Origin: Candidatus Iainarchaeum sp.
GTDB lineage: Archaea; Iainarchaeota; Iainarchaeia; Iainarchaeales; GCA-2688035
Assembly (NCBI GenBank): GCA_028713935.1
Contig: JAQTNI010000001.1
Location: 33,894-65,893, forward strand
Direction: 5' to 3'
DNA length: 32,000 nt
A program made the position numbers and the translations under genes. Below are positions 1,121-25,722 of this stretch, piece by piece. The notes below the pieces were generated by a model. It was not told the DNA's origin. It made no database searches and saw only the letters and a program-made list of their open reading frames with translations. Position 1 is the first letter of the stretch. Each line of letters starts with the position of its first letter.

Positions 1121-1281
1121 TGCGTCCGCCGGGATTCGAACCCGGGTTACGAGCTCTTTCCTGCTTCAATTTTGTTTATTATTTGTTGAAGTTCTTTCTT
1201 TTGGGCAACTTACACTTTTCTTTCTTTCAAGAAAGAAAAGGGCAGTGGGAAGCTCGAATCCTACCGCTAGATTACAGACGC
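1121..1281 (-). tRNA. tRNA-Gly(CCC) with a 90-nt intron at 37/38 (intron 1156-1245)
   Basis: Minus strand folds as acceptor GCGTCTG/CGGACGC, D arm ATCT-AGCGGTA-GGAT, anticodon stem CGAGC/GCTCG, loop TTCCCA(A), T arm CCGGG-TTCGAAT-CCCGG, discriminator A. No CCA is encoded. The splice sites sit in a canonical bulge-helix-bulge: TTCC pairs with GGAA between 3-nt bulges CA|C and AG|A. Confidence 0.85.
1186..1245 (-). repeat. Intron copy of the ~60-nt hairpin element (5' part of the tRNA-Gly intron)
   Basis: Hand alignment with 1057-1120 shows a perfect 19-nt core AAAGTGTAAGTTGCCCAAA. The hairpin arms differ but stay complementary within each copy. Confidence 0.7.
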
Positions 1282-2121
1282 GTTTTCTTTTTTTTCTGTT
1301 GTGCCTGTTTCTGTTTGCTGTAATTGTGCTGATGGCGCTATTAAGTATGCCTGTTGGTTTTCTATTTTTATTTGCATTCCTGGCAGGTAGATTTTTACTA
1401 GGTTTTTTTCTGTGGGAGGAAATTTTTCCGCCAGTGCGAGCAATTGCAGTGTTTGTTTTTTTTCTATTACAAGGTTGTTTTGCTCTGTTTTTGCCTGCAG
1501 AGATTCTTTTATTTGGTTTGCAAAGTTTGGGTTTGTGCATTCAATGCGGATTTGTTGCAGTTCTTGTTTTTCAATTATTGCAAAAATTGTGGGAATTGTT
1601 TCCTGTGAAAGAGAAATTTTTTTGAAGTCATTAAAATTCAGTTCTTTTAGTGCTGTTATCTGGTGCAAGAGCACGTCTGAAAGGTATTTTAGTTGTTGTG
1701 CCCGTTTGTCTGTTTTTTCCTTTAGTTCAAGCAAATCGGAAATGTAAAAATTGCTGCTTGTTTTTGCTGCTTTCAGCAAATCGTTGTCTGCTTTGCTTCT
1801 TTCAATGAGGGTTTGCAGCATTTTTACTATTGTTTCAACCTCTTCAACAGGGTTTTTTGATGCCATGCTTTCATTTAGCCTTGTCAATAGCTTGTTTTTC
1901 ATTTCAGAATTGATTTCAACAAGGCCCTTGTCTGTTACAAAAATCTTGTTTGCCTGCCTCTGCACAACGCCAATTGCAGCCAAATCTTTCAAAGTCCTAC
2001 TTAAAGCAGCGCGAGCAGAATTAATGCTGCCATATTCAGAAGTGATTCTGTTAAGCAGCTCGTTGTAATCAATTCCGGGATTCTGCTTAAGAATTAACAA
2101 AAAATTGTTTCTCTGGGTCAC
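1267..2121 (-). CDS. Winged-helix DNA-binding protein with a long coiled-coil C-terminal region (hypothetical)
   Basis: 284-codon ORF. The N-terminal ~70 aa look like a wHTH (ELLNRITSEYGSINSARAALSRTLKDLAAIGVV); the rest is helical and Q/E/K-rich. The last 15 nt overlap the 5' exon of tRNA-Gly. Confidence 0.55.
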   Translation of the reverse strand: MTQRNNFLLILKQNPGIDYNELLNRITSEYGSINSARAALSRTLKDLAAIGVVQRQANKIFVTDKGLVEINSEMKNKLLTRLNESMASKNPVEEVETIVKMLQTLIERSKADNDLLKAAKTSSNFYISDLLELKEKTDKRAQQLKYLSDVLLHQITALKELNFNDFKKISLSQETIPTIFAIIEKQELQQIRIECTNPNFANQIKESLQAKTEQNNLVIEKKQTLQLLALAEKFPPTEKNLVKIYLPGMQIKIENQQAYLIAPSAQLQQTETGTTEKKENASVI

Positions 2122-2171
2122 GTTAAAAACAATTAGTCGAATCCTTTAAAATCGTTTCTAATTTTTGTTTT

Positions 2172-2252
2172 TTGTTAATTTTTTCCACAATCTTGTTAAT
2201 GGTTTTTTTAATTTGTTAATTAATTTGTTTTTTCAGGCTTTAATTTGTTAAT
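2172..2252. promoter_or_regulatory. Four spaced TTGTTAAT direct repeats in the promoter region of the wHTH gene
   Basis: TTGTTAAT occurs at 2172, 2193, 2213 and 2245, with a degenerate copy near 2224. Spacing of the first three is 21 and 20 bp. Confidence 0.35.
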
Positions 2253-2318
2253 TAGCATGTTGCATTTTCAAGAAAAAGTGTTATTATTCGCTTTGAAACT
2301 AACAAACAGGTTTGCATT

Positions 2319-2612
2319 TTATGCTGCAGTTGTGCCTTTTCCGACTTCTATTTTTTTCATTCTTTTTGGGATTACAAAATAGTGTTTTGCAGAGCAGACA
2401 CTGCATTCTGCAATGAAACAGGGTTTTTTGTTTTGTTTTTTTACTGTTGCAGTAAACTGGTGTTTTCCCTTGTAACCGCGTTTTTTTCTTTCATTGGACC
2501 TGTTTCCTTTTGCCATTGTCCTTGGCGAACCTGCCCTGAACAATTTGAGCTTATGGTCTGTATGGGTATTGCATTTTTTGCAATAATCCTTGATTACCTT
2601 TGGCATATTCAT
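2319..2612 (-). CDS. rpl44e: Ribosomal protein eL42 (L44e)
   Basis: MNMPKVIKDYCKKCNTHTDHKL ... ECSVCSAKH: a four-cysteine zinc ribbon with the size and N-terminus typical of archaeal L44e. Confidence 0.9.
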   Translation of the reverse strand: MNMPKVIKDYCKKCNTHTDHKLKLFRAGSPRTMAKGNRSNERKKRGYKGKHQFTATVKKQNKKPCFIAECSVCSAKHYFVIPKRMKKIEVGKGTTAA

Positions 2613-2751
2613 AAAGCATCACAAAAAATCGGATTTATTCTACAAATTACTAAAAATTATAGGCATGGAAAGCTTTTAAAAGCACTCTGAAAACACAAAA
2701 ACACACTATTTCCAAGTAACTCTTTAATTCTGATTTGTCTTTTATTATGCC

Positions 2752-3210
2752 ATGGTTCGGAATGTTAAAAAATGGGTAAATTATGTTGATAAGTCCCTTG
2801 CAAGGCAGCCTAAGCGTGCACTGAGAAGGCAGAGGCAAATAGAAAGGCAAGTTTTTGCCCAAGAAATTTCTCCAAAGGACTTGAAAAAGGCGCGTGCAGA
2901 GTTATCTGCTTCTGTTGCAGAGCAAAGAGTCCTGAGAAAGGATCACAAGCTTTTTAACAAAATAGTTATTGACACAGCAATAAAAGAGCTTGGTTTTAAT
3001 CAGACTTTGTCTTCTTCTGCATTAAGAAACCTGCATTTGCTTTCAAACAGGGCCTTGATGATTCCCCTGGGTTCAACAATAGAAATCCGACCTGAAGTTT
3101 TTGGCCAAACATTAACTCAAATAATCAGGTTAATTGGCGACAAACCCCTTGCAATAAAATTTTTGTCTACTCTGATTCACTTGCGCGAAGCTTACAATAA
3201 AAATCTTTAA
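2752..3210 (+). CDS. Hypothetical protein with a basic N-terminus
   Basis: 152-codon ORF in an otherwise unoccupied interval. No motif recognised. Confidence 0.45.
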   Translation: MVRNVKKWVNYVDKSLARQPKRALRRQRQIERQVFAQEISPKDLKKARAELSASVAEQRVLRKDHKLFNKIVIDTAIKELGFNQTLSSSALRNLHLLSNRALMIPLGSTIEIRPEVFGQTLTQIIRLIGDKPLAIKFLSTLIHLREAYNKNL

Positions 3211-3241
3211 TGCAAAAGCAATTGAGAAAACCATTTGCAAT

Positions 3242-3658
3242 TCAGTTTTGCCCTATTCCACAAAGTTTTTTCCATTGCTCTTCCACTGTCCTTTCGTTCA
3301 CATATGGCTTGTGGTGCCTGAATCCGCCTCCAAATCCTGCTGGGATGTGCAGTAATTCGTGAATCAGGGTTTTTGTTTTGTCATCCTCGCTTAGCCTGTC
3401 AAATTTTTCCGAAAGCAGTTCAATCACATAAAAAGGCTCTGTTTTCATTCCAAGCTGCATTGCTTTTCCTAACCCATGTATGCGTGCAATTGTCCTTCTT
3501 GTTTTTGTCCCTGCACTTTTAAGACAGGCAATTCTTTCAGGCGCAATATGGTGAAAACCGAGCTTTTCAACAAGTTCCCTTGCCTTCAAAGTCCATTCTT
3601 CTGAAAAAGCGTATTTCACAAAAAAAACCTTATAACATTTCAGAAATTTTTTTTCCAA
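3242..3658 (-). CDS. Putative HExxH zinc metallopeptidase (COG4900-like)
   Basis: HELLHIPAGFGGGFRHH motif in a small ~138-aa protein. The start overlaps the end of the DJ-1 gene by 29 nt. Confidence 0.55.
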   Translation of the reverse strand: MEKKFLKCYKVFFVKYAFSEEWTLKARELVEKLGFHHIAPERIACLKSAGTKTRRTIARIHGLGKAMQLGMKTEPFYVIELLSEKFDRLSEDDKTKTLIHELLHIPAGFGGGFRHHKPYVNERTVEEQWKKLCGIGQN

Positions 3659-4130
3659 ATTCCCTTGCTGCCTGCGGGCCTTTTCCTGTAATTATTTTGC
3701 CATCGGTTTCAACAAGCGCTTCAGTTAATTTTGCGCCTTTTGCCTCAATTTTCTCTGCAAGCCCTGTGCAGGTCGCTTTTTTTCCTTTCAAGAGGCCTGC
3801 ATTTGCAAGAATCATTGGTGCAATGCAGATTGCTGCAACAATTTTTCCTTCTTTTGAAAATTCTTTTGCCAATTTCAATGCAGCCGCATCTTTGAAATAA
3901 GTTTCTGAGCCTGAGCCTCCGACAAAAATAATTGCATCAAAATCGCCTGTTTTCACCTGCTTTAATTCCAATGAAATTTCCGCTTTTCCCCCAAGCATTC
4001 CAATTGCAGTGCCTTTTTGCTTTCCTGCAATAACTGTTTCATGCCCTGCCTTTTCCAGCTCTTCTTTTGTAAAAAACAATTCTTCATCACGGAAATTTTT
4101 TTGTGCAATTACCAAAACAATCTTTGCCAT
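3630..4130 (-). CDS. DJ-1/PfpI family protein
   Basis: Starts MAKIVLVIAQ and has the nucleophile-elbow AAICIAP motif. The start is trimmed to the ATG at 4130; the 48-codon upstream extension in the track is unlikely to be translated. Confidence 0.85.
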   Translation of the reverse strand: MAKIVLVIAQKNFRDEELFFTKEELEKAGHETVIAGKQKGTAIGMLGGKAEISLELKQVKTGDFDAIIFVGGSGSETYFKDAAALKLAKEFSKEGKIVAAICIAPMILANAGLLKGKKATCTGLAEKIEAKGAKLTEALVETDGKIITGKGPQAAREFGKKISEML

Positions 4131-4196
4131 AAGCAGTGCCTTTATCCAATTATTTGCAGGGAAAGGTTTTTTATTCTGAAAGGGCATAATGTTTGC

Positions 4197-4544
4197 ATGA
4201 AAACAGGGCTTTTGCTGATTTGCTTTGTTGTTTTTGCTGTTTTGTTCAGCGGCTGCACACAGCAGCCCGCACAAGCCCCTCTAGGCGGAAACAATTCCAA
4301 TACAATTGAAATTTCAAATTTTTCTTTTTCTCCAAGCGAAATTACAATTAAAAAAGGAGAAACTGTTGCCTGGATAAACAAGGATTCAGCAAAGCACAGC
4401 ATTGTTTCAGACTCAGGAAGCGAATTGAATTCAACGCTTTTGGCAACCAACGAAACTTTTTCACACACATTTAATTCTTCGGGAACATTCGGTTATCATT
4501 GCACTGTGCACGCTTCAATGAAAGGAAAAGTAATCGTAGAGTGA
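4197..4544 (+). CDS. Small blue-copper (cupredoxin/plastocyanin-like) lipoprotein
   Basis: Signal peptide with lipobox LFSGC. Type-1 copper ligands are H (AKHSI) and YHCTVHASM (C-x2-H-x2-M). Start trimmed to the ATG at 4197. Confidence 0.8.
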   Translation: MKTGLLLICFVVFAVLFSGCTQQPAQAPLGGNNSNTIEISNFSFSPSEITIKKGETVAWINKDSAKHSIVSDSGSELNSTLLATNETFSHTFNSSGTFGYHCTVHASMKGKVIVE

Positions 4545-4548
4545 TTGC

Positions 4549-4767
4549 TTGCTCGAAAACATTGTTTATTTCATGATTCTTGGAAAGCCGCTCATATTCT
4601 ATTTGGGGATTATTACCCTGGTTTCTTTTTTGTGCACTGCAACAATCGGCTTTTTGAATTTTAAAGGCTATAAAAAAATTCCTTTCAAATGGCATCCGCG
4701 CTTTGCTGCAATTTCAATAATTCTGGGAATAATCCACGGCACACTCGGAATACTGCTTTACCTTTGA
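4549..4767 (+). CDS. Small two-TM membrane protein (hypothetical)
   Basis: 72-codon ORF directly after the cupredoxin gene with two hydrophobic helices. TTG start, so the true start may be the internal ATG. Confidence 0.45.
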   Translation: MLENIVYFMILGKPLIFYLGIITLVSFLCTATIGFLNFKGYKKIPFKWHPRFAAISIILGIIHGTLGILLYL

Positions 4768-4805
4768 AAACAAAGCTTTTTATTTTGCTTTTTTCTAATT
4801 AGAAC

Positions 4806-5627
4806 ATGCAGCCAAAAATCTTCTGGATTGCCTCTCTCGCGCTTCTTTTGATAATGCTCATTGTGAATGCCTTTTTTGTCCTCGACCTGCTCACTTCCGA
4901 CCTTCCAGTTGAATTGTTCATAGTGAATTTCATACTTTTTTTCCCATTGGCTGCCTCACTTGGCTTTGTTTGGGCCAAAAAAAATTTTGGCTATTATTTA
5001 AGCCTTGTTCTTGGGGCGATTTTTTTAGTGCTTTATGCGGGTGAATTTATTTTTACGCTCCTGGCTTTGCAGGAAGCGCTTTCCCTGATGGATTTTTTTT
5101 CCTTTATTTTCCCGCTTATAATTCCGCCTGCCCTGCTCCTGCTCTGCACATGGAAAAGCAGGCCTGTTTTTCAGGAAACAAATCCGGGAACACATTGGAA
5201 TGCAGCGCTGATTACACTAGTCCTGGTTTTTTTGTTTTACCTTGCTTCGGCAATAACACTTGCCTTTTATTATTCCGCAATGGTTGCAGCCGAATATTTC
5301 ACTGAAAACCTTGTTTATATTTTCAATTCCCTCTTAATCCAGGGAGCAATCTTTATTGTTGCGCTTATTGCAACTGCATTTTTCTTTTTTAAAAAAAGAG
5401 CGGGTTTTTACCTGGGGCTTGCTGTTCCAATCCTGCTTGCAATTGTTTCCCTTGCAGACCTGAGCATGCAATTAATTTCTGTTTGGCAAATTGCAACTCC
5501 AGATGAAATGTTGTCATTGTCACTTGCAATTTTAGGTTCCATCCAGCCAGGCCTTTTAATAATCCTTTTTTACTGTATCTGGAAAGCAAAGCCTGTTTTT
5601 GAGGAAAAAAAACATGCACAACCTTGA
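4806..5627 (+). CDS. Polytopic membrane protein (hypothetical)
   Basis: 273-codon ORF with about 8 hydrophobic segments. No family motif recognised. Confidence 0.6.
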   Translation: MQPKIFWIASLALLLIMLIVNAFFVLDLLTSDLPVELFIVNFILFFPLAASLGFVWAKKNFGYYLSLVLGAIFLVLYAGEFIFTLLALQEALSLMDFFSFIFPLIIPPALLLLCTWKSRPVFQETNPGTHWNAALITLVLVFLFYLASAITLAFYYSAMVAAEYFTENLVYIFNSLLIQGAIFIVALIATAFFFFKKRAGFYLGLAVPILLAIVSLADLSMQLISVWQIATPDEMLSLSLAILGSIQPGLLIILFYCIWKAKPVFEEKKHAQP

Positions 5628-6657
5628 TTTGAAACTGGATTCCTCGCAGCTGAAAGATATCTGGGTTATGCTTAGCCAGTCCTGTGACCATAAATGCAGG
5701 AATTGCTTTGAAGCAACTGAAAAAGGAATTGATTCATCAAAAGACAACCTTTCTGCAAAAGAAATACTGAAATTAATCAATGAGGCAATTGAATTGGGAA
5801 TCAATGAAGTCGGGATTCCAGGAGCATGAGAACCATTTCACCCAAAAAATATCAAAATACTGTTCAAGATTCTTAATAACAATTTCAAAAAGGGAATTCA
5901 TACAACTGTTTTTACACACCTCGGCTTTTTTGACAAGAAGATAGTAAAAAAGCTTGCAAAATTCGGTGACAAAATTACGCTGCTTGTAAAATTCAATTCC
6001 TTTAAGCCAGAGCTTCAGGATTGGTTTGACAATGCAAAAGGCTATGCAAAAAAACGCGATAAAATTCTTCAGCTCCTGTTCAAGCAGGGCTTTAACGATG
6101 GCAAACGCCTTGGTTTTGTAACCTCAATAATGACTTTTAATTTCAAGGAGATTCCTGAAATTTTCCGTTACTGCAGGAGAAATAACATTGTGGTTGATAT
6201 TGACAATATTTTGCCGAGGGGGAGAGGCTATAAAAACAAGTTCAATCCCTCGGATAAAAAACTGAAGGGAATGTATGAAACACTTGCAAAAATTGACAAA
6301 GAAGAATTTGGCAATGGCTGGGAACCAACCGGGAGTTATGCCGGCCCTGAAGCCTGCAATCGTTATTGCCATCACCTGTTCATTGCAAAAAACGGTGAAG
6401 CACATCCCTGCATTGGCTCTGTTAATATTTTTCTTGGCAATGTAAAAAAGCTCGGCTTGAAGCAAATTTGGAATTCTTCGGAAATGAAAATTATCAGGGA
6501 ACGTTCTTATGACGGGAAATGTCTTGACTGCAAATTGTTCATTGAAAACAAATGCCATTCCTGCCTTGGCAGATATACTGAAAATCTTGACAAAAGGAAT
6601 CTTCTTGAAACAGGAAAGGGTCATACAACTGGCTGTTTTTGCTTCAAAGAAAAATAA
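5614..6657 (+). pseudogene. Radical SAM/SPASM-domain protein interrupted by one in-frame TGA (5827-5829)
   Basis: CDHKCRNCF is a CxxxCxxC radical SAM cluster motif. The C-terminus is Cys-rich and SPASM-like (CHHL...CIG...CLDCKLFIENKCHSCLG). ORFs 5599-5829 and 6130-6657 share one frame, and 5830-6129 has no further stop. The TGA falls in ...GIPGA*EPF, where the GGEP SAM-binding motif is expected. Confidence 0.75.
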
Positions 6658-13549: not shown

Positions 13550-13678
13550 GCAGAGGTGGCAAGGCCTTTCTTTGCCTTGCAAAGAAAGCCCTGGGAAAGA
13601 AATACTTTTTGCCAATGCAAAAAGTGCTTCGCAAAGGAAACCCCTGGGAAAAAATTGCCGCCAATAAAAGAAAATCAT
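13550..13678 (+). repeat. Duplicate of the first 12 nt of tRNA-Ser(UGA) fused to an extra copy of the tRNA-intron two-hairpin module
   Basis: GCAGAGGTGGCA at 13550-13561 is identical to 13679-13690, the tRNA 5' end. The 117 nt between them begin AGGCCTTTCTTTGCCTTGCAAAGAAAGCCCTGGGAAAGAAA, paralogous to the starts of both Ser-tRNA introns. Confidence 0.75.
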
Positions 13679-13872
13679 GCAGAGGTGGCAGAACTTGGTA
13701 AATGCGCCGGCCTTGAGAAGCCTTTCTTTCTAAAGAAAGAAAGCCTTGGGAAAGAAACAGTTTGGCTCTGCCAAACTGTAGTTCGCTTCGCTTACATTAG
13801 AAAAAAAGATTATTATTTTTCAGGCGAGCCGGTGTCCGAAAGGGCGCGTGGGTTCAAATCCCATCCTCTGCG
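13679..13872 (+). tRNA. tRNA-Ser(UGA), class II, with a ~109-nt intron at 37/38 (about 13718-13826)
   Basis: Acceptor GCAGAGG/CCTCTGC, 3-bp D stem GCA/TGC, anticodon stem CCGGC/GCCGG, loop CTTGAGA, long variable arm TGTCCGAAAGGGCGC, T arm GTGGG-TTCAAAT-CCCAT, discriminator G. A BHB-like fold is possible: CTTG pairs with CAGG between bulges AG|A and CG|A. Confidence 0.85.
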
Positions 13873-13877
13873 CAATC

Positions 13878-18165: not shown

Positions 18166-18192
18166 TTTGCACAACTTATTATTTCAAGCAAT

Positions 18193-18438
18193 GCGGGGGT
18201 GGCAGAGCGGTCTAATGCGCACGCCTGGAAAGGCCTTTTCTTGCAAGCAAGAAAAGCCCTGGGAAAAGAACAATTTGCTTTGCAAATTGGTTGATTCCCC
18301 GGTTCTCCCCAAAGGATAATTTCAGTTAGAAATTTTTTTCTTTGGGGTGGACTGCAGACCTTTCTTTTTATTAAAAAGAAAGGGATATAGAGAGCGTGTT
18401 CTCGAAAGGGAGCGCGAGTTCAAATCTCGTCCCCCGCG
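18193..18438 (+). tRNA. tRNA-Ser(GGA), class II, with a 162-nt intron at 37/38 (18231-18392)
   Basis: Acceptor GCGGGGG/CCCCCGC, D stem GCA/TGC, anticodon stem CACGC/GCGTG, loop CTGGAA(A), variable arm TTCTCGAAAGGGAGC, T arm GCGAG-TTCAAAT-CTCGT, discriminator G. The BHB is relaxed, with 3 of 4 central pairs. Confidence 0.85.
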
Positions 18439-18439
18439 T
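18418..18439 (+). repeat. att-like core copy 1 (tRNA-Ser(GGA) positions 53-73 plus 1 nt)
   Basis: GTTCAAATCTCGTCCCCCGCGT, identical to 19775-19796 and 21294-21315. Confidence 0.9.
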
Positions 18440-18528
18440 TAAACGAAAAGTTCAAATCCAATTGAACGGAAAATTCAAAAAAGAAGCTTTTTTATTTTGC
18501 TTGGAGCATAATTGTTATTGGTGGTATA

Positions 18529-18750
18529 ATGGATCAAACTTTTAAGGTTGTGATTGAGAACGGCATGGACGGTTATTTAATTGCAGAAGTTCCAGAATTG
18601 CCAGGTTGCTATTCTCAAGGAAAAACCATGGAAGAGCTTTTAGGCAATATTAAAGAGGCAATTGAACTCTATTTGGAATCGCTGCAAGAACTGGATAAAA
18701 AACCAGAAAAACGGTTTGTTGAAATAAAAGAAGTTGTCGTAAATGCCTAA
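18529..18750 (+). CDS. hicB: HicB-family antitoxin (UPF0150)
   Basis: YLIAEVPELPGCYSQGKTMEELLGNIKEAIELYLE is the typical HicB N-terminal domain. It overlaps hicA by 8 nt. Confidence 0.85.
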   Translation: MDQTFKVVIENGMDGYLIAEVPELPGCYSQGKTMEELLGNIKEAIELYLESLQELDKKPEKRFVEIKEVVVNA

Positions 18751-18970
18751 GCTCAAGCTGCTTGCGCCAAAAGAACTAATAAAAATCATTGAAAAACTCG
18801 GCTTCAAGTTTTTACGGCAAAAAGGAAGCCACGCAACCTTTGTCCATCCAGACGGAAGAATGACAGTAATACCAATACACAGCAACTCAAAAATAGATAG
18901 AGGATTGCTCTTGAAAATAATAAAAAAAGAACTGCAAATGGAAAGGCAAGAATTCGAAATATTATTGTAA
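18743..18970 (+). CDS. hicA: HicA-family mRNA interferase toxin
   Basis: LIKIIEKLGFKFLRQKGSHATFVHPDGRMTVIPIH is the YcfA/HicA signature with the GSH motif. Confidence 0.9.
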   Translation: MPKLKLLAPKELIKIIEKLGFKFLRQKGSHATFVHPDGRMTVIPIHSNSKIDRGLLLKIIKKELQMERQEFEILL

Positions 18971-18978
18971 AAAAGGGC

Positions 18979-19280
18979 TGTGTTATAAATTGTCCGAAAT
19001 GCAAGAAGAAAATGGTTGAGGAAAAAGGCGAAACTCCCGAAGGCGCTACATACCATTATCACAAGTGTCCTAACTGCTGCGAGGAAATAGTTGACATGAA
19101 ACAGTTGCACGCTGTTGCACAGCAATACAGGGAAATGAAAAAATACACTGCAAAAATCAGCAAATGGGGAGAAGCCTCGGCATAAGAATTCCAAAAGAAC
19201 TCGCAGAACAACACTCCCTGAAACAAAACGGCGAAGTAACCTTGGTTCCGGAAAAAAAAGCAATAAAAATAGTTGCATAA
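18979..19280 (+). pseudogene. Zn-ribbon + AbrB/SpoVT(MazE-like) antitoxin gene, frameshifted and lacking a normal start
   Basis: Frame 1 gives CPKCKKKM...YHYHKCPNCC...TAKISKWGEASA* with the stop at 19183. The frame offset by +2 continues (G)RSLGIRIPKELAEQHSLKQNGEVTLVPEKKAIKIVA* to 19280. Joined, ISKWG-x-SLGIRIPKEL is the canonical AbrB first strand, and the shift lies in the G-run at 19166-19169. No ATG/GTG/TTG precedes the first CxxC. Confidence 0.65.
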
Positions 19281-19345
19281 AACGAAGCCAGAAAGTGCTT
19301 GGGCTGATTCAAAAGATAAATATAAAAATACGGGAAGTGCAATAT

Positions 19346-19738
19346 ATGGCCATGGCACGAACACTCAAACAAAGAAAAAACCGAAGAAAAACAGGTGGCG
19401 TACTTGCTGTCAGCCCCAATCCACGTGAGGTATATCGTGAAGCTGATGGTTGGAGTGTTTTTCCAGATGTTCGGTACTATGTGCCTGGTAAGCGCATGAC
19501 TAATTTTCAAGTGGCTCTCCGATTTTCCAATAAAAAAGGTTCCGATCGTTGGCGCTATAACCAATTTTTGAAACAACATGGTTTTATGGTAACAATGGGC
19601 GGTGATATTGTAAAGTCGCTTCCCGGCAAGAAATTTAGAATGCTAACAAAAACAGAGAAAGACAAAGTGTTACGCTTGTTAAAGTCGGGCTGGGCAGTAT
19701 CTTATGGCCCAAGGCCAAAAAATACACGACAAAAATAA
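19346..19738 (+). CDS. Small highly basic protein of unknown function, islet-A copy (paralog of 20880-21257)
   Basis: 130 aa. Shares blocks with the islet-B copy: NRRKTGGVL, VFPDVRY, RFSNKxGSDRWxYNQFLK, GDIVKxLPGxKFRxL, SGWAxxYGPxPKxTxxK. Ends 36 nt before core copy 2. Start trimmed to the ATG at 19346. Confidence 0.75.
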   Translation: MAMARTLKQRKNRRKTGGVLAVSPNPREVYREADGWSVFPDVRYYVPGKRMTNFQVALRFSNKKGSDRWRYNQFLKQHGFMVTMGGDIVKSLPGKKFRMLTKTEKDKVLRLLKSGWAVSYGPRPKNTRQK

Positions 19739-19774
19739 CCTGATGCTTGTCACGCGCATCATTAACGGCATAGT

Positions 19775-19796
19775 GTTCAAATCTCGTCCCCCGCGT
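19775..19796 (+). repeat. att-like core copy 2
   Basis: Perfect 22-nt copy of the tRNA-Ser(GGA) 3' end. The upstream T-stem strand is absent, so this is not a tRNA. Confidence 0.9.
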
Positions 19797-19849
19797 GTTT
19801 TTATTTCATAAACAATATGTTTTTAAATTGAAAACAGAATGTTTTTATT

Positions 19850-20392
19850 ATGCTTGCGAGTGAATTGTTTTCTTCAAAGGAGAGAATTGGGCTTATCAAG
19901 ATTCTTTTTTATACGCCCAATTTGGAATTAAAAGTTAGGTCTCTTGCTCGGTTTGCAAAAGTAAGCCCTGCTCTTGTTTCCGGCACGATTGCGATTCTTA
20001 AGAAACAAGGAGCTATAAACAAAGGCAAAATTGATTTGTTGCATCCTTCTGCAAGGGCCTTGAAAATACTATTGAATATTGAAAGCCTCACCTCTGCCAA
20101 ATTTGTTCCTGAAATAAGAAGCATTTTCAAGGATTGCAATGGCATTGGTTTGTATGGTAGTTGGGCAAACGGAACCAATTCAAAAGACAGTGATTTGGAT
20201 TTTTGGGTAAAATCAGAATCTGAAAGCGAGGAAAAGTCGGCTAAAATAAGTCGTTTTGTTAAGCAGAAGCTTGGCTTGGAAGCCAGCATAATTATTCTTA
20301 CACAAAAAAGGCTGAAAGAATTGAAAGAAAAGGATTTTGTTTTTTATTCAATGCTGTACAATTGTTTTTTGTTGTGGGGCGAAGGAATATGA
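19850..20392 (+). CDS. wHTH + minimal nucleotidyltransferase (MNT) antitoxin
   Basis: GLYGSWANGTNSKDSDLDFWV is the GS...DxD nucleotidyltransferase motif, and the N-terminal ~60 aa are wHTH-like. Confidence 0.8.
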   Translation: MLASELFSSKERIGLIKILFYTPNLELKVRSLARFAKVSPALVSGTIAILKKQGAINKGKIDLLHPSARALKILLNIESLTSAKFVPEIRSIFKDCNGIGLYGSWANGTNSKDSDLDFWVKSESESEEKSAKISRFVKQKLGLEASIIILTQKRLKELKEKDFVFYSMLYNCFLLWGEGI

Positions 20393-20805
20393 TTGATTTT
20401 AATGAGTGCCTTGCAAAAGGCCTTTTGGCAAGAATTCCCGCTTCAAGGGAAAAAGCTTTGCAGAGTATTGAGAAAGCAAAAGAACTATTGGAAGAAGCAA
20501 AAGCAAGCCTTGAAGAGGAAAGAATCAATTCCACAGTAATAGTTGCCTATCTTGCAATTTTTCATGCTGCAAGGGCACTGCTTTTCAAAGATGGTTACAG
20601 GGAAAAAAGCCACGAATGCGTAATCCGCTATCTGGAAGAAAAATATCCTGAAATAAAACCAGGGCAGATTGAAGCCTTGGAAAAATACAAAAGTGAAAGA
20701 ACCCACACACAATACGATGTGAGTTATAATCCAAGCGAAGAACAAGCAGAAAAAATGATAAAATTCACGGAAAAATTCATCCAAACAATAGAAGAAATGA
20801 TTTAA
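20389..20805 (+). CDS. HEPN-domain protein (toxin partner of MNT)
   Basis: All-helical 138 aa with AARALLFKDGYREKSHECVIRYL, as in PF05168-type HEPN. It has an ATGA start/stop overlap with the MNT gene. Start trimmed to the ATG at 20389. Confidence 0.75.
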   Translation: MIDFNECLAKGLLARIPASREKALQSIEKAKELLEEAKASLEEERINSTVIVAYLAIFHAARALLFKDGYREKSHECVIRYLEEKYPEIKPGQIEALEKYKSERTHTQYDVSYNPSEEQAEKMIKFTEKFIQTIEEMI

Positions 20806-20879
20806 GCTGGTTCGCTTCTATGCCTTGTTTTTTGGAAAATTATAAATATGGGCATGTGCTTAATACTATTGGTAGTTTA

Positions 20880-21257
20880 ATGCGCGGTGTAAACAAAAAT
20901 AGGAGAAAAACTGGTGGCGTACTCCGTGTTGGGAAACGACCACTTGAAGTTGGGATTTCGTTGGAAGATAGCGGTTTTCATGTTTTTCCCGATGTTCGAT
21001 ACCGCAGTGACCGAATGAGTAGATTTAAAACTTCTCGCAGGTTTTCTAACAAAATAGGTTCAGATCGCTGGCACTATAACCAGTTTTTAAAACCTCGCGG
21101 CTTTTGGATTACCCAAGCGGGCGATATTGTAAAACCCCTTCCGGGCAATAAATTTAGGTTTTTAAAGCTATCCGAATTTCGGAAAGTTAGGGATTTGTTA
21201 TGGTCGGGTTGGGCAAAGAGATACGGCCCAAAACCAAAAACAACTAAGCGAAAATAG
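20880..21257 (+). CDS. Small highly basic protein of unknown function, islet-B copy (paralog of 19346-19738)
   Basis: 125 aa, with roughly half its positions identical to the islet-A copy by hand alignment. Ends 36 nt before core copy 3. Confidence 0.75.
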   Translation: MRGVNKNRRKTGGVLRVGKRPLEVGISLEDSGFHVFPDVRYRSDRMSRFKTSRRFSNKIGSDRWHYNQFLKPRGFWITQAGDIVKPLPGNKFRFLKLSEFRKVRDLLWSGWAKRYGPKPKTTKRK

Positions 21258-21293
21258 CATCATTCTTGCCACGCGCATCTTTAACAGTAAGGT

Positions 21294-21315
21294 GTTCAAA
21301 TCTCGTCCCCCGCGT
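21294..21315 (+). repeat. att-like core copy 3
   Basis: Perfect 22-nt copy of the tRNA-Ser(GGA) 3' end. Confidence 0.9.
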
Positions 21316-22907: not shown

Positions 22908-22971
22908 GCAAATATTTTTCCAAGTTTTTTTGTTGGAAAGGTTATAAACTACTTTGTTAAATGCTTTTTTT

Positions 22972-23457
22972 ATGCAGGAAGAATTCAGGCTTGTTTCAAA
23001 TACGGAATTGGCAGGCCCTTTAAGGCATTTTGTTGAAGCTATTTTTGCCAAACATATTTCTAATCCGGGTTCTTTGAAGGTTTTTATTTCAAACGGCGGC
23101 CAAATGAAAGGGATTGCAAGGGGCAATGTTTTGATTGGATTTTGCGCCTTTATGCCGCTTGGCAATGATTCTGTTTTAATAAGCCAAATCTGGACAAATA
23201 CGAAGTCAGTGGCTGCAAGAGAATTCAAAAGAGATTTTGGCAGGACTCCAACAGAATATCTTTTTGGAGATTTTTTGAGGAAAGGAATTTCCCATTTTCA
23301 TCATCTAGGGGTAACAGCTTTAGGTGCAAGATTTTTGGCAAGGCTTGAGAAAAACGCCCTGGTTGCTAAAAAACAAAGCGGGTTTGAAATAACAAATAGG
23401 GCAATTGAAAAAGCAAAAAAAACAAGGCAATTAAGGCCTCTCAGGGTTATTCATTGA
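22972..23457 (+). CDS. Hypothetical protein
   Basis: 161-codon ORF from the first ATG. No motif recognised. Confidence 0.45.
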   Translation: MQEEFRLVSNTELAGPLRHFVEAIFAKHISNPGSLKVFISNGGQMKGIARGNVLIGFCAFMPLGNDSVLISQIWTNTKSVAAREFKRDFGRTPTEYLFGDFLRKGISHFHHLGVTALGARFLARLEKNALVAKKQSGFEITNRAIEKAKKTRQLRPLRVIH

Positions 23458-24567: not shown

Positions 24568-25722
24568 ATGGGCAAAACTTTTGGCATCAGCATAGGGCTT
24601 GGCATTGTAAAGCCAAATTTTGAAAAGCCGTTTGAAGAGAATTTTGAGAAGGCTTTTTCTGCTTTCAAGGAATACAAAAAGGCAAAAATTTCTGAAAGGA
24701 AAGCGTTTTTTGGAGTGCTTTCAAGGAAGGACTGGGAAAGCCTTGTAGGAATAAAGCTGATTGAAAATTCTTCCATAGAAGGAAAAAAATTTCTTGAAGG
24801 GGAATACAAAAAAATTCTTTTTTTTGATGAAGAAAGGCTTTTTCTTGAAACAGTTGAACTGAACAGGGAAATGGAAAACAATCTTTTTCTTCTGAAGAAA
24901 AAAAGAAGTTTTGCAAAAAGCATTGCAAAGGGAATTTTCAGGGTAAAAAATGCTTTTTCTGGCTTTGAAAGGCTTTTCAAGAAAAAAATTCTTTTGGAAA
25001 TGGGTTTTTTCAGGCTGCTGCCTTTTTGTTATTCCCTGATTGAAGAACTGCCTGAATCAAAAAAACAATTTGTGAAATACAATGAAAGCGATGCAATTGA
25101 GTTTGTTTCAAAGCCGGGCCAGAGCCTTAATAAAATTGAAAAAGAATTATTGCGGAACATTCTGCTTGCAGAAAAAATTCTTGCAAAAAAAGGCCTGAAA
25201 CTTTTTTTTGGCAGTGTTTATCCAAAAACAAAAAGAATGGGCTTGCTGAAAAAGATTGGAATTGGCGAGGACCAGAATTTTTTGGAATTGCATTTGCACA
25301 TGGGAAATTTTGATTCCGCTGCTGAAATGGCAGAACTGTACAACAAAATAATTGGCTTTTTTGAAGCAAATCCCCTGTTAATTGAAGAGGAGCGCAGGCT
25401 TTTTTATGGCCTTAAAAACCCAAGAAGGTTAAGCCTGAAAGGCATTGAAGAGCAAATTCGGGCAAGGTTTGGAAAAAACAGCAGGCTTGAAAAACCAGGC
25501 AGGCCTGATATTGATGCAATTATTTCGGCTTTGAACAATAGAAAACAGAAATTTTTGGCGAGAGATTATGCGACTGTTTTTATCAGGCCTGAGCTTGGCA
25601 CAATTGAAATCAGGGCTTTTGGAACAAAAGGAAACGGAACAAAAAGCATAAGGAAAAACCTTCATGAAAACATTGTTTTTTTTGAACAGTTCATGAAAAA
25701 ACTTGAATTGGCTTCAGCGTGA
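24568..25722 (+). CDS. Hypothetical protein whose C-terminal half resembles GCS2-type carboxylate-amine ligases
   Basis: 384 aa. AIEFVSKPGQSL, LELHLHMG and FIRPELGTIEIRAFG resemble the E-x-E, H-x-H-x-G and E-x-R motifs of glutamate-cysteine ligase family 2 (YbdK-like). The N-terminal ~150 aa are unassigned. Confidence 0.4.
   Translation: MGKTFGISIGLGIVKPNFEKPFEENFEKAFSAFKEYKKAKISERKAFFGVLSRKDWESLVGIKLIENSSIEGKKFLEGEYKKILFFDEERLFLETVELNREMENNLFLLKKKRSFAKSIAKGIFRVKNAFSGFERLFKKKILLEMGFFRLLPFCYSLIEELPESKKQFVKYNESDAIEFVSKPGQSLNKIEKELLRNILLAEKILAKKGLKLFFGSVYPKTKRMGLLKKIGIGEDQNFLELHLHMGNFDSAAEMAELYNKIIGFFEANPLLIEEERRLFYGLKNPRRLSLKGIEEQIRARFGKNSRLEKPGRPDIDAIISALNNRKQKFLARDYATVFIRPELGTIEIRAFGTKGNGTKSIRKNLHENIVFFEQFMKKLELASA

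Follow-up and report, generated by a model that had tools for sequence, protein, structure and literature searches.

Two basic orphan proteins beside the right ends of tandem toxin-antitoxin islets at an archaeal tRNA-Ser(GGA) gene

DPANN archaea have tiny genomes, and to our knowledge the ways in which they gain and lose genes are poorly understood. Here we analysed a 32,000-nucleotide stretch of a 65.9-kb Candidatus Iainarchaeum contig (JAQTNI010000001.1), which is referred to as "the window" in this study. Within it, two small islets lie in tandem at the 3' end of a tRNA-Ser(GGA) gene, each carrying toxin-antitoxin (TA) genes and each ending with an open reading frame (ORF) for a small, strongly basic protein that reads toward a copy of the tRNA 3' end. 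An initial annotation, made from the sequence without database searches, had drawn attention to these two proteins and named them as candidates for the function that defines the element. Its observations are confirmed below, and its interpretation is partly supported.

Layout of the two islets and their shared right-end block

The islets are bounded by a 22-bp core (GTTCAAATCTCGTCCCCCGCGT) that occurs exactly three times in the window, at 18418, 19775 and 21294, where none is expected in shuffled sequence. The first copy is part of the tRNA gene, and the three copies delimit islets of 1357 bp (islet 1) and 1519 bp (islet 2). The features of the locus are listed in Table 1. The cargo of the two islets is unlike: islet 1 carries a HicB/HicA pair and a decayed Zn-ribbon/MazE-like gene, islet 2 an MNT/HEPN pair. 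The decayed gene lacks a start codon ahead of its first CxxC and contains a frameshift at approximately 19164-19185; its conceptually repaired protein matches MazE_antitoxin (E=5e-10) across the frameshift junction.

Table 1. Features of the islets and their target gene, in window coordinates
Feature	Position	Strand	Remarks
tRNA-Ser(GGA)	18192..18439	+	162-nt intron in anticodon loop; integration target; 3' end is core copy 1
Core copy 1 (attL-like)	18418..18439	+	T-loop to discriminator of tRNA-Ser(GGA) plus 1 nt; exact 22-mer
HicB-like antitoxin, islet 1 cargo	18529-18750	+	Pfam HicB_lk_antitox E=7e-11
HicA toxin, islet 1 cargo	18743-18970	+	Pfam HicA_toxin E=2e-18
Decayed Zn-ribbon/MazE(AbrB)-like antitoxin gene, islet 1	18955..19281	+	From translations; MazE_antitoxin match after conceptual repair
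TATA-like box ATAAATAT, islet 1	19316..19323	+	30 nt upstream of ORF1 ATG; same box in islet 2
ORF1, 130-aa basic orphan protein	19346..19738	+	pI 11.2; PHD95_00350
36-nt spacer, islet 1	19739..19774	+	Element-side arm of putative attachment site; with motif ACGCGCATCWTTAACRGYAWRGT
Core copy 2	19775..19796	+	Junction of islets 1 and 2
MNT-type nucleotidyltransferase with N-terminal winged helix-turn-helix (wHTH), islet 2 cargo	19850-20392	+	Pfam NTP_transf_2 E=2.5e-8
HEPN, islet 2 cargo	20362-20805	+	Pfam HEPN E=2e-19
TATA-like box ATAAATAT, islet 2	20842..20849	+	38 nt upstream of ORF2 ATG
ORF2, 125-aa basic orphan protein	20880..21257	+	pI 11.6; ORF1 paralog; PHD95_00365
36-nt spacer, islet 2	21258..21293	+	
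Core copy 3 (attR-like)	21294..21315	+	Native chromosome resumes beyond

The proteins encoded by ORF1 and ORF2 are identical at 73 of 122 residues (60%; BLASTP E=7e-45), somewhat more than the half that had been estimated by hand, and all of the sequence blocks that the initial annotation listed are found in both. The coordinates likewise bear out its statement that each ORF stops exactly 36 nt short of the core, and the Pfam assignments its statement that the rest of each islet is unrelated. Conservation from islet to islet takes the form of one contiguous block of approximately 475-480 nt, which comprises the TATA-like box, the ORF, the 36-nt spacer and the core; as the ORF lies in this only shared block, its product is, as had been proposed, the sole protein conserved between the two islets.

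The proposed dN/dS comparison of the paralogs gave values of 0.21-0.38, with dS (0.95-1.6) near saturation, and the identities at codon positions 1, 2 and 3 are 73%, 68% and 51%, respectively. ORF1 and ORF2 are real protein-coding genes under purifying selection, and the low ratio together with the near-saturated dS indicates that the protein was preserved while the two copies diverged over a long time. Both products have basic tails and contain 31-33 lysine and arginine residues in their 125-130 amino acids. The spacers of the two islets are identical at 27 of 36 positions (75%, versus 51% at third codon positions), and the core is identical at 22 of 22 positions in all three copies. This constraint on spacer and core, beyond the synonymous-site level, argues that they form a functional recombination site. 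It also speaks against an ancient local duplication and for two site-specific integration events, each of a diverged relative.

The longer NCBI call for ORF2 (145 aa) contains the TATA-like box at 20842..20849; because the box sits inside that call, the start at 20880 is favoured. We infer from archaeal promoter geometry that the ATAAATAT box is the promoter, and its 30-nt distance from the ATG of ORF1 predicts a leaderless transcript.

As the islets otherwise consist of TA modules, and as 65 nt separate ORF1 from an upstream antitoxin gene of the MazE/AbrB type, the protein might be taken for a TA component itself, e.g., for the toxin that pairs with the Zn-ribbon/MazE-like antitoxin of islet 1. 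This is highly improbable: there is no MazE-like gene upstream of ORF2 in islet 2; each ORF has a TATA-like box of its own, which is not the arrangement of an operon; ORF1 is intact, unlike the frameshifted MazE-like gene; and neither protein matches a toxin family in PADLOC or Pfam. Given the conserved block, the purifying selection, the high pI, and the absence of both a known family and a nearby integrase, the gene behaves like element backbone, not like swappable cargo.

Insertion at an intron-containing tRNA gene and related islets

The target gene was detected by ARAGORN only with introns allowed. Default ARAGORN detected none of the three tRNA genes in the window, and Rfam missed tRNA-Ser(GGA); the locus shows that standard tRNA finders overlook intron-containing integration targets. 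All three genes have long anticodon-loop introns, of 162 nt in Ser(GGA), 90 nt in Gly(CCC) and 236 nt in Glu(TTC), the other two genes being located at c1120-1281 and 13550-13873.

A scan with a 21-nt core, covering one genome per species, yielded 15 loci, all of them tRNA-Ser genes in Iainarchaeota-like metagenome-assembled genomes (MAGs). The orthologous tRNA-Ser(GGA) was found in three of the genomes, designated L005, L008 and L009. In the close relatives L008, whose GuaA is 78% identical at the amino acid level, and L009, guaA, tRNA-Ser(GGA) and the downstream genes are kept, and no islets are present. The downstream order in L008 is DUF7343-ABC-CARDB; in L009, the tRNA gene is followed by one other gene and then by a CDGSH gene, and the window has an AAA_17 kinase gene at that intermediate place. 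Because the neighbourhood of the tRNA gene is the same in these relatives but free of islets, positions 18440-21315 are an insertion, and the islets are inserted in tandem at the 3' end of tRNA-Ser(GGA).

With direct repeats that equal the 3' end of the target gene, and an orthologous site that is free of islets in L008 and L009, the locus resembles cis-mobilizable elements (CIMEs), which are integrase-less, att-flanked modules that undergo tandem accretion (PMC5704250). They share with the islets of the window the bounding repeats of a target-gene 3' end, the tandem arrangement, the lack of an integrase and the absence from relatives. The present case differs in being archaeal (DPANN), in measuring only 1.4-1.5 kb per islet, and in that the two islets have a conserved small protein gene in common. 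The smallest cryptic element described from Thaumarchaeota, at 2.6 kb, still encodes an integrase (PMC6563490), and the islets of the window are smaller than this. No recombinase domain was found in the islets or in the 30 other large ORFs of the window that were scanned.

Comparable islets occur elsewhere. In L005, which represents the same organism as L018 and L019, the orthologous tRNA-Ser(GGA), also intron-containing, is followed by a gene for a 421-aa wHTH-Fic protein (Pfam Fic E=3e-18). A degenerate core lies 1534 nt downstream, and directly upstream of it stands ACGCACAATTAACAGAAAGGC, which is identical to the spacer motif of the window at 12 of 14 positions. When metagenomes were scanned for the right-end motif, the sole match was again the L005 organism, and neither the core nor the right-end motif was found in the viral contig collection. 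In the complete genome of AR10, a 1527-nt islet at tRNA-Ser(GCU) is bounded by perfect 27-bp repeats; it carries a membrane protein gene and a Gp49/RelE-like pair, and its right end is different. In the Diapherotrites MAG L023 (positions 1988-6028), two islets without an integrase stand in tandem, delimited by three copies of a 112-nt repeat that corresponds to the 3' end of an SRP54/FtsY-like gene; one islet has an AAA_14/DUF4143 ATPase and the other an MNT-HEPN pair that is 55% identical to that of the window. Each of these two islets has its own small basic ORF at the attachment-site-proximal end, reading toward the repeat (2193-2558(-) and 4452-~4865(-)), and these small ORFs have a 46-nt (AT)n promoter-like stretch in common. 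This locus and three others contain kilobase-sized, integrase-less islets with TA or Fic cargo, bounded by copies of a host gene 3' end. Small islets of this kind recur in the phylum, and the 130-aa protein is not a universal component of them.

Measured from core to core, four islets in three genomes (window 18418-21315, L005 2033-3587 and L003 654-2201) are 1357, 1519, 1534 and 1527 nt long. These near-equal lengths may reflect a size constraint or may be a coincidence. Partial copies of the core, reading GTTCAAATCC, TTCCCGCGTT and GTTCCCCGCGTG, are located just inside the left ends of islets in the window (18451-18460), L005 (2069-2078) and L003 (~2110-2121(-)), and these may be scars of earlier integrations or deletions. 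In addition, the 24 nt after core copy 2 (19797-19821), at the left end of islet 2, are identical at 21 of 24 positions to the native tRNA 3' flank in L008 (3937-3913(-)). Synteny with L009 nevertheless places the native flank of the window after core copy 3, and the islet 2 arm may have originated from a tRNA trailer or have come to resemble one.

Downstream of the islet arrays in the window (22954-23457) and in L023 (6030-6680(-)) there are uncharacterised proteins with a common motif, F.R.FG..P..YLF...R.G..HF, recognised by eye only. Two Logan contigs from different samples, L001 and L002, both begin exactly at window position 20623, within the HEPN gene, and L001, compared base by base, is identical to the window from 20623 onward. 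The shared start suggests an assembly-graph branch, caused by a second HEPN copy or a strain variant.

Searches for relatives, a fold and a recombination function

The initial annotation recognised no known family and recommended profile searches and a structural comparison. Both have been carried out, and neither protein matched a known family or structure. Scans of the two proteins against Pfam, NCBIfam, PHROGs and PADLOC revealed no family; a word-indexed search of 5.8 billion protein clusters retrieved only the ORF1 and ORF2 proteins themselves; an exhaustive profile HMM search of 1.84 billion representatives retrieved only the protein itself and one NHL-repeat protein; tblastn-confirmed scans of genome, metagenome and viral contig collections yielded no relative; and the best match in a sequence search of the PDB was the NHL domain of TRIM71, at E~0.1. 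The family is an orphan, with only its two members in the collections searched. The AlphaFold2 models of the two proteins have confidence scores (pLDDT) of 51 and 46; both show a weak helix-strand-strand-(strand)-helix in the C-terminal half at low confidence, and about half of the protein is modelled at very low confidence and may be disordered.

The two NHL matches raise the question of whether residues ~37-98 derive from about 1.5 NHL repeats (beta-propeller blades), in which case the protein would be a protein- or RNA-binding module, possibly forming an oligomeric propeller, with no role on DNA. NHL proteins are the only matches beyond the family and come from two independent databases: the TRIM71 domain and a 1208-aa NHL-repeat protein that scores 38 bits (E=1.8e-4 in the library of 1.84 billion), whereas column-shuffled profiles reach no more than 6 bits. 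The NHL signature, GSxxWxxxQFxxPxG-hxh-xxxGxI, also aligns with the family. However, the 38 bits are the sum over six repeat units of 8-11 bits each on a repetitive target; hhalign against NHL units gives a probability of only 15% (P=0.0018); the Pfam NHL model has no match at E<=1; and both AlphaFold2 models place a helix, although at low confidence, where NHL strands would be. Furthermore, 1.5 blades cannot form a propeller alone, and the five or six tandem blades of a propeller are not present. The NHL matches agree with each other but are weak, and we give an NHL origin a low probability.

No feature links the protein to recombination chemistry: there is no recombinase or HUH signature, no conserved histidine, and no confident fold or structural match. 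This agrees with the initial annotation, which had noted that HUH, tyrosine-recombinase and serine-recombinase signatures are missing. A tyrosine recombinase was rejected on the basis of the absence of a Pfam or NCBIfam match at E<=1, the absence of a histidine conserved between the paralogs, and the length of only 125-130 aa. A serine recombinase was rejected as well, since no Pfam match at E<=1 was obtained and the N-terminal S23 of ORF1 is Gly in ORF2, and so was an HUH/Y1 transposase (IS200/IS605 TnpA-like), with neither a conserved histidine nor a profile match. An Int(N) fragment of the SSV type was rejected too. SSV-type ("suicidal") integrases, which split into Int(N) and Int(C) upon integration, are archaeal and tRNA-targeting and leave short ORFs near tRNA-derived repeats, as is seen here; their reading frame spans the attachment core, so that the Int(N) fragment reads through it (PMC7253208). 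In contrast, both ORFs of the window stop 36 nt upstream of the core, further in-frame stops follow in the spacer, there is no similarity to an integrase, and no Int(C) remnant is found at the left ends of the islets.

A more radical proposal is that the protein, at about 130 aa, is a minimal site-specific recombinase of a new kind, which integrates and excises circles of 1.4-1.5 kb at the tRNA-Ser core and makes the islets autonomous. The int gene of phage lambda reads toward attP, and the ORFs likewise read toward the core; the protein is the only conserved one of the islets; no other recombinase was found in the window; and the 22-bp cores of both gene-carrying islets are perfect, in contrast to the degenerate distal core of the L005 islet, which lacks the gene. 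Nevertheless, the protein is shorter than the catalytic domains of known tyrosine and serine recombinases, no recombinase profile matches at E<=1, and the lack of a conserved histidine leaves neither an HUH motif nor an R-K-H-R-H/W-Y set. The perfect repeats in AR10 also exist without the gene, and about half of the protein may be disordered. We regard an autonomous recombinase as highly improbable.

At the right end itself, an attC-like site or another RNA structure was rejected, since spacer plus core form no significant hairpin: they fold no better than shuffled sequence (z-scores of -1.4 to +1.3), and Rfam reports nothing there. Integron cassettes, including those of archaeal integrons, are also small mobile units, often with TA genes, that stand in arrays with the integrase elsewhere. 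The repeat in the window differs from theirs in being a tRNA 3' end and not an attC.

Candidate roles of the basic protein

Integrase-less, att-flanked islets are of a known kind; what is new here is the orphan, backbone-like gene, for which a role in recombination is proposed. We tentatively favour, at a probability of roughly 0.3, the reading that the protein, carried by the element but optional for it, binds nucleic acid and serves as an accessory factor at the adjacent right end, comparable to a recombination directionality factor (RDF) or to a protein with an architectural or regulatory task. According to this reading: the islets would be miniature, non-autonomous integrative elements carrying TA addiction modules, and site-specific recombination would have brought them to the 3' end of tRNA-Ser(GGA); strand exchange would be performed by an integrase supplied in trans, either from another element or by the host; and the protein would be expressed from its own TATA-box promoter, be inherited as one block with the element-side arm and the core, and act on the adjacent right-end DNA as an RDF or an architectural or regulatory protein does.

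We infer a trans-acting integrase, which fits three precedents: the accretion of CIMEs; arrays that arise when an integration site is used repeatedly (PMC6563490); and the dif (pdif) modules of Acinetobacter, which often carry TA genes (PMC6449649, PMC13141974). The last are moved by the host XerCD, and they share with the islets of the window the kilobase size, the short bounding sites, the TA cargo, the shuffling of cassettes and the absence of a recombinase of their own. They differ in that the site in the window combines a tRNA 3' end with an arm specific to the element instead of being a dif-like XerC/XerD site, in that the islets are chromosomal and not on a plasmid, and in that no recombinase was found for them.

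RDFs such as Xis, Cox and Vis are small, strongly basic, element-encoded and located at the attachment-site end, and the same holds for the protein of the window (125-130 aa; pI 11.2 and 11.6). Its length, its pI and its lysine and arginine content match the size and charge profile that reportedly characterises RDFs, although it stands at the large end of their size range, has no sequence similarity to them and shows no fold similarity in the low-confidence models. An RDF would let a non-autonomous element use a helper integrase, and the same may be proposed here.

Several results weigh against this reading. Known RDFs normally adjoin an integrase gene, and there is none in the islets or among the scanned window ORFs; no helper integrase was identified, either. 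Arm-type repeats between the reconstructed P and P' arms are not above the shuffled expectation. Library scans gave no helix-turn-helix, winged-helix or Xis-type match, and Foldseek searches of the PDB and BFVD with the AlphaFold2 models returned nothing at E<=0.001. As no homologs were found in any collection searched, the linkage to an attachment site has no comparative support, and the fixed 36-nt spacing counts as a single observation, with the two copies having inherited one common right-end block. In addition, the Fic islet (L005, L018 and L019) contains neither the 130-aa gene nor a remnant of it, despite its right-end motif and core; the AR10 islet has neither the gene nor an integrase; and in L023 the gene is missing, the small ORFs there being unrelated to the window family and to each other.

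The Fic islet shows that the protein is dispensable for the islet architecture. Because this islet and those of AR10 and L023 lack the gene, the protein is at most an optional accessory and does not define the islet class, and the proposal that it supplies the function defining the element does not hold.

About as likely as the accessory role is the possibility that the gene is a passenger or a remnant, i.e., ancestral cassette cargo or the last gene of a larger element, with no part in recombination. It would then stay by the attachment site through inheritance of the right-end block, while TA modules were later inserted or swapped upstream. The related islet that has the same right-end motif without the gene is consistent with this, and so is the gene decay in islet 1, where the Zn-ribbon/MazE gene is frameshifted. 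The partial core copies at the left ends suggest turnover and deletion within arrays. Moreover, MNT-HEPN pairs 55-66% identical to that of islet 2 occur in many unrelated contexts, without a member of the 130-aa family, which indicates that TA modules move independently. Small orphan proteins are also common on DPANN contigs, one of the small ORFs in L023 (121 aa) being itself an orphan. On the other hand, the same architecture would require two independent histories of decay, the four near-equal islet lengths look like a natural unit size rather than random deletion remnants, and conservation of a gene while the rest varies is the usual signature of a backbone.

A bolder reading seems very unlikely to us, in which the 130-aa protein would be the agent that drives a new type of minimal integrative cassette in archaea, either as a recombinase of unknown type or as an att-specific factor that recruits a host enzyme. 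If this were true, TA circles of 1.4-1.5 kb could enter and exit DPANN genomes at gene 3' ends, and the fast-evolving small basic orphan ORFs at the attachment-site-proximal ends of other Iainarchaeota/Diapherotrites islets (e.g., those in L023) would be functional analogues.

If the basic orphan protein does let cassettes move, it would represent a new and very compact recombination accessory or enzyme, and a route by which defence and addiction modules could spread in DPANN symbionts. Should it prove to be a passenger gene, the locus would still provide a clear case of islets accreting in tandem at an archaeal tRNA gene with an intron.

Elsewhere in the window, several ORFs of 270-384 aa have no Pfam match (1267-2121(-), 4806-5627 and 24568-25722), the first of which abuts the tRNA-Gly gene. 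A DJ-1/PfpI gene adjoins a gene at 3242-3658(-) whose product has a "putative phage metallopeptidase" domain (PF18894, E=3e-18).

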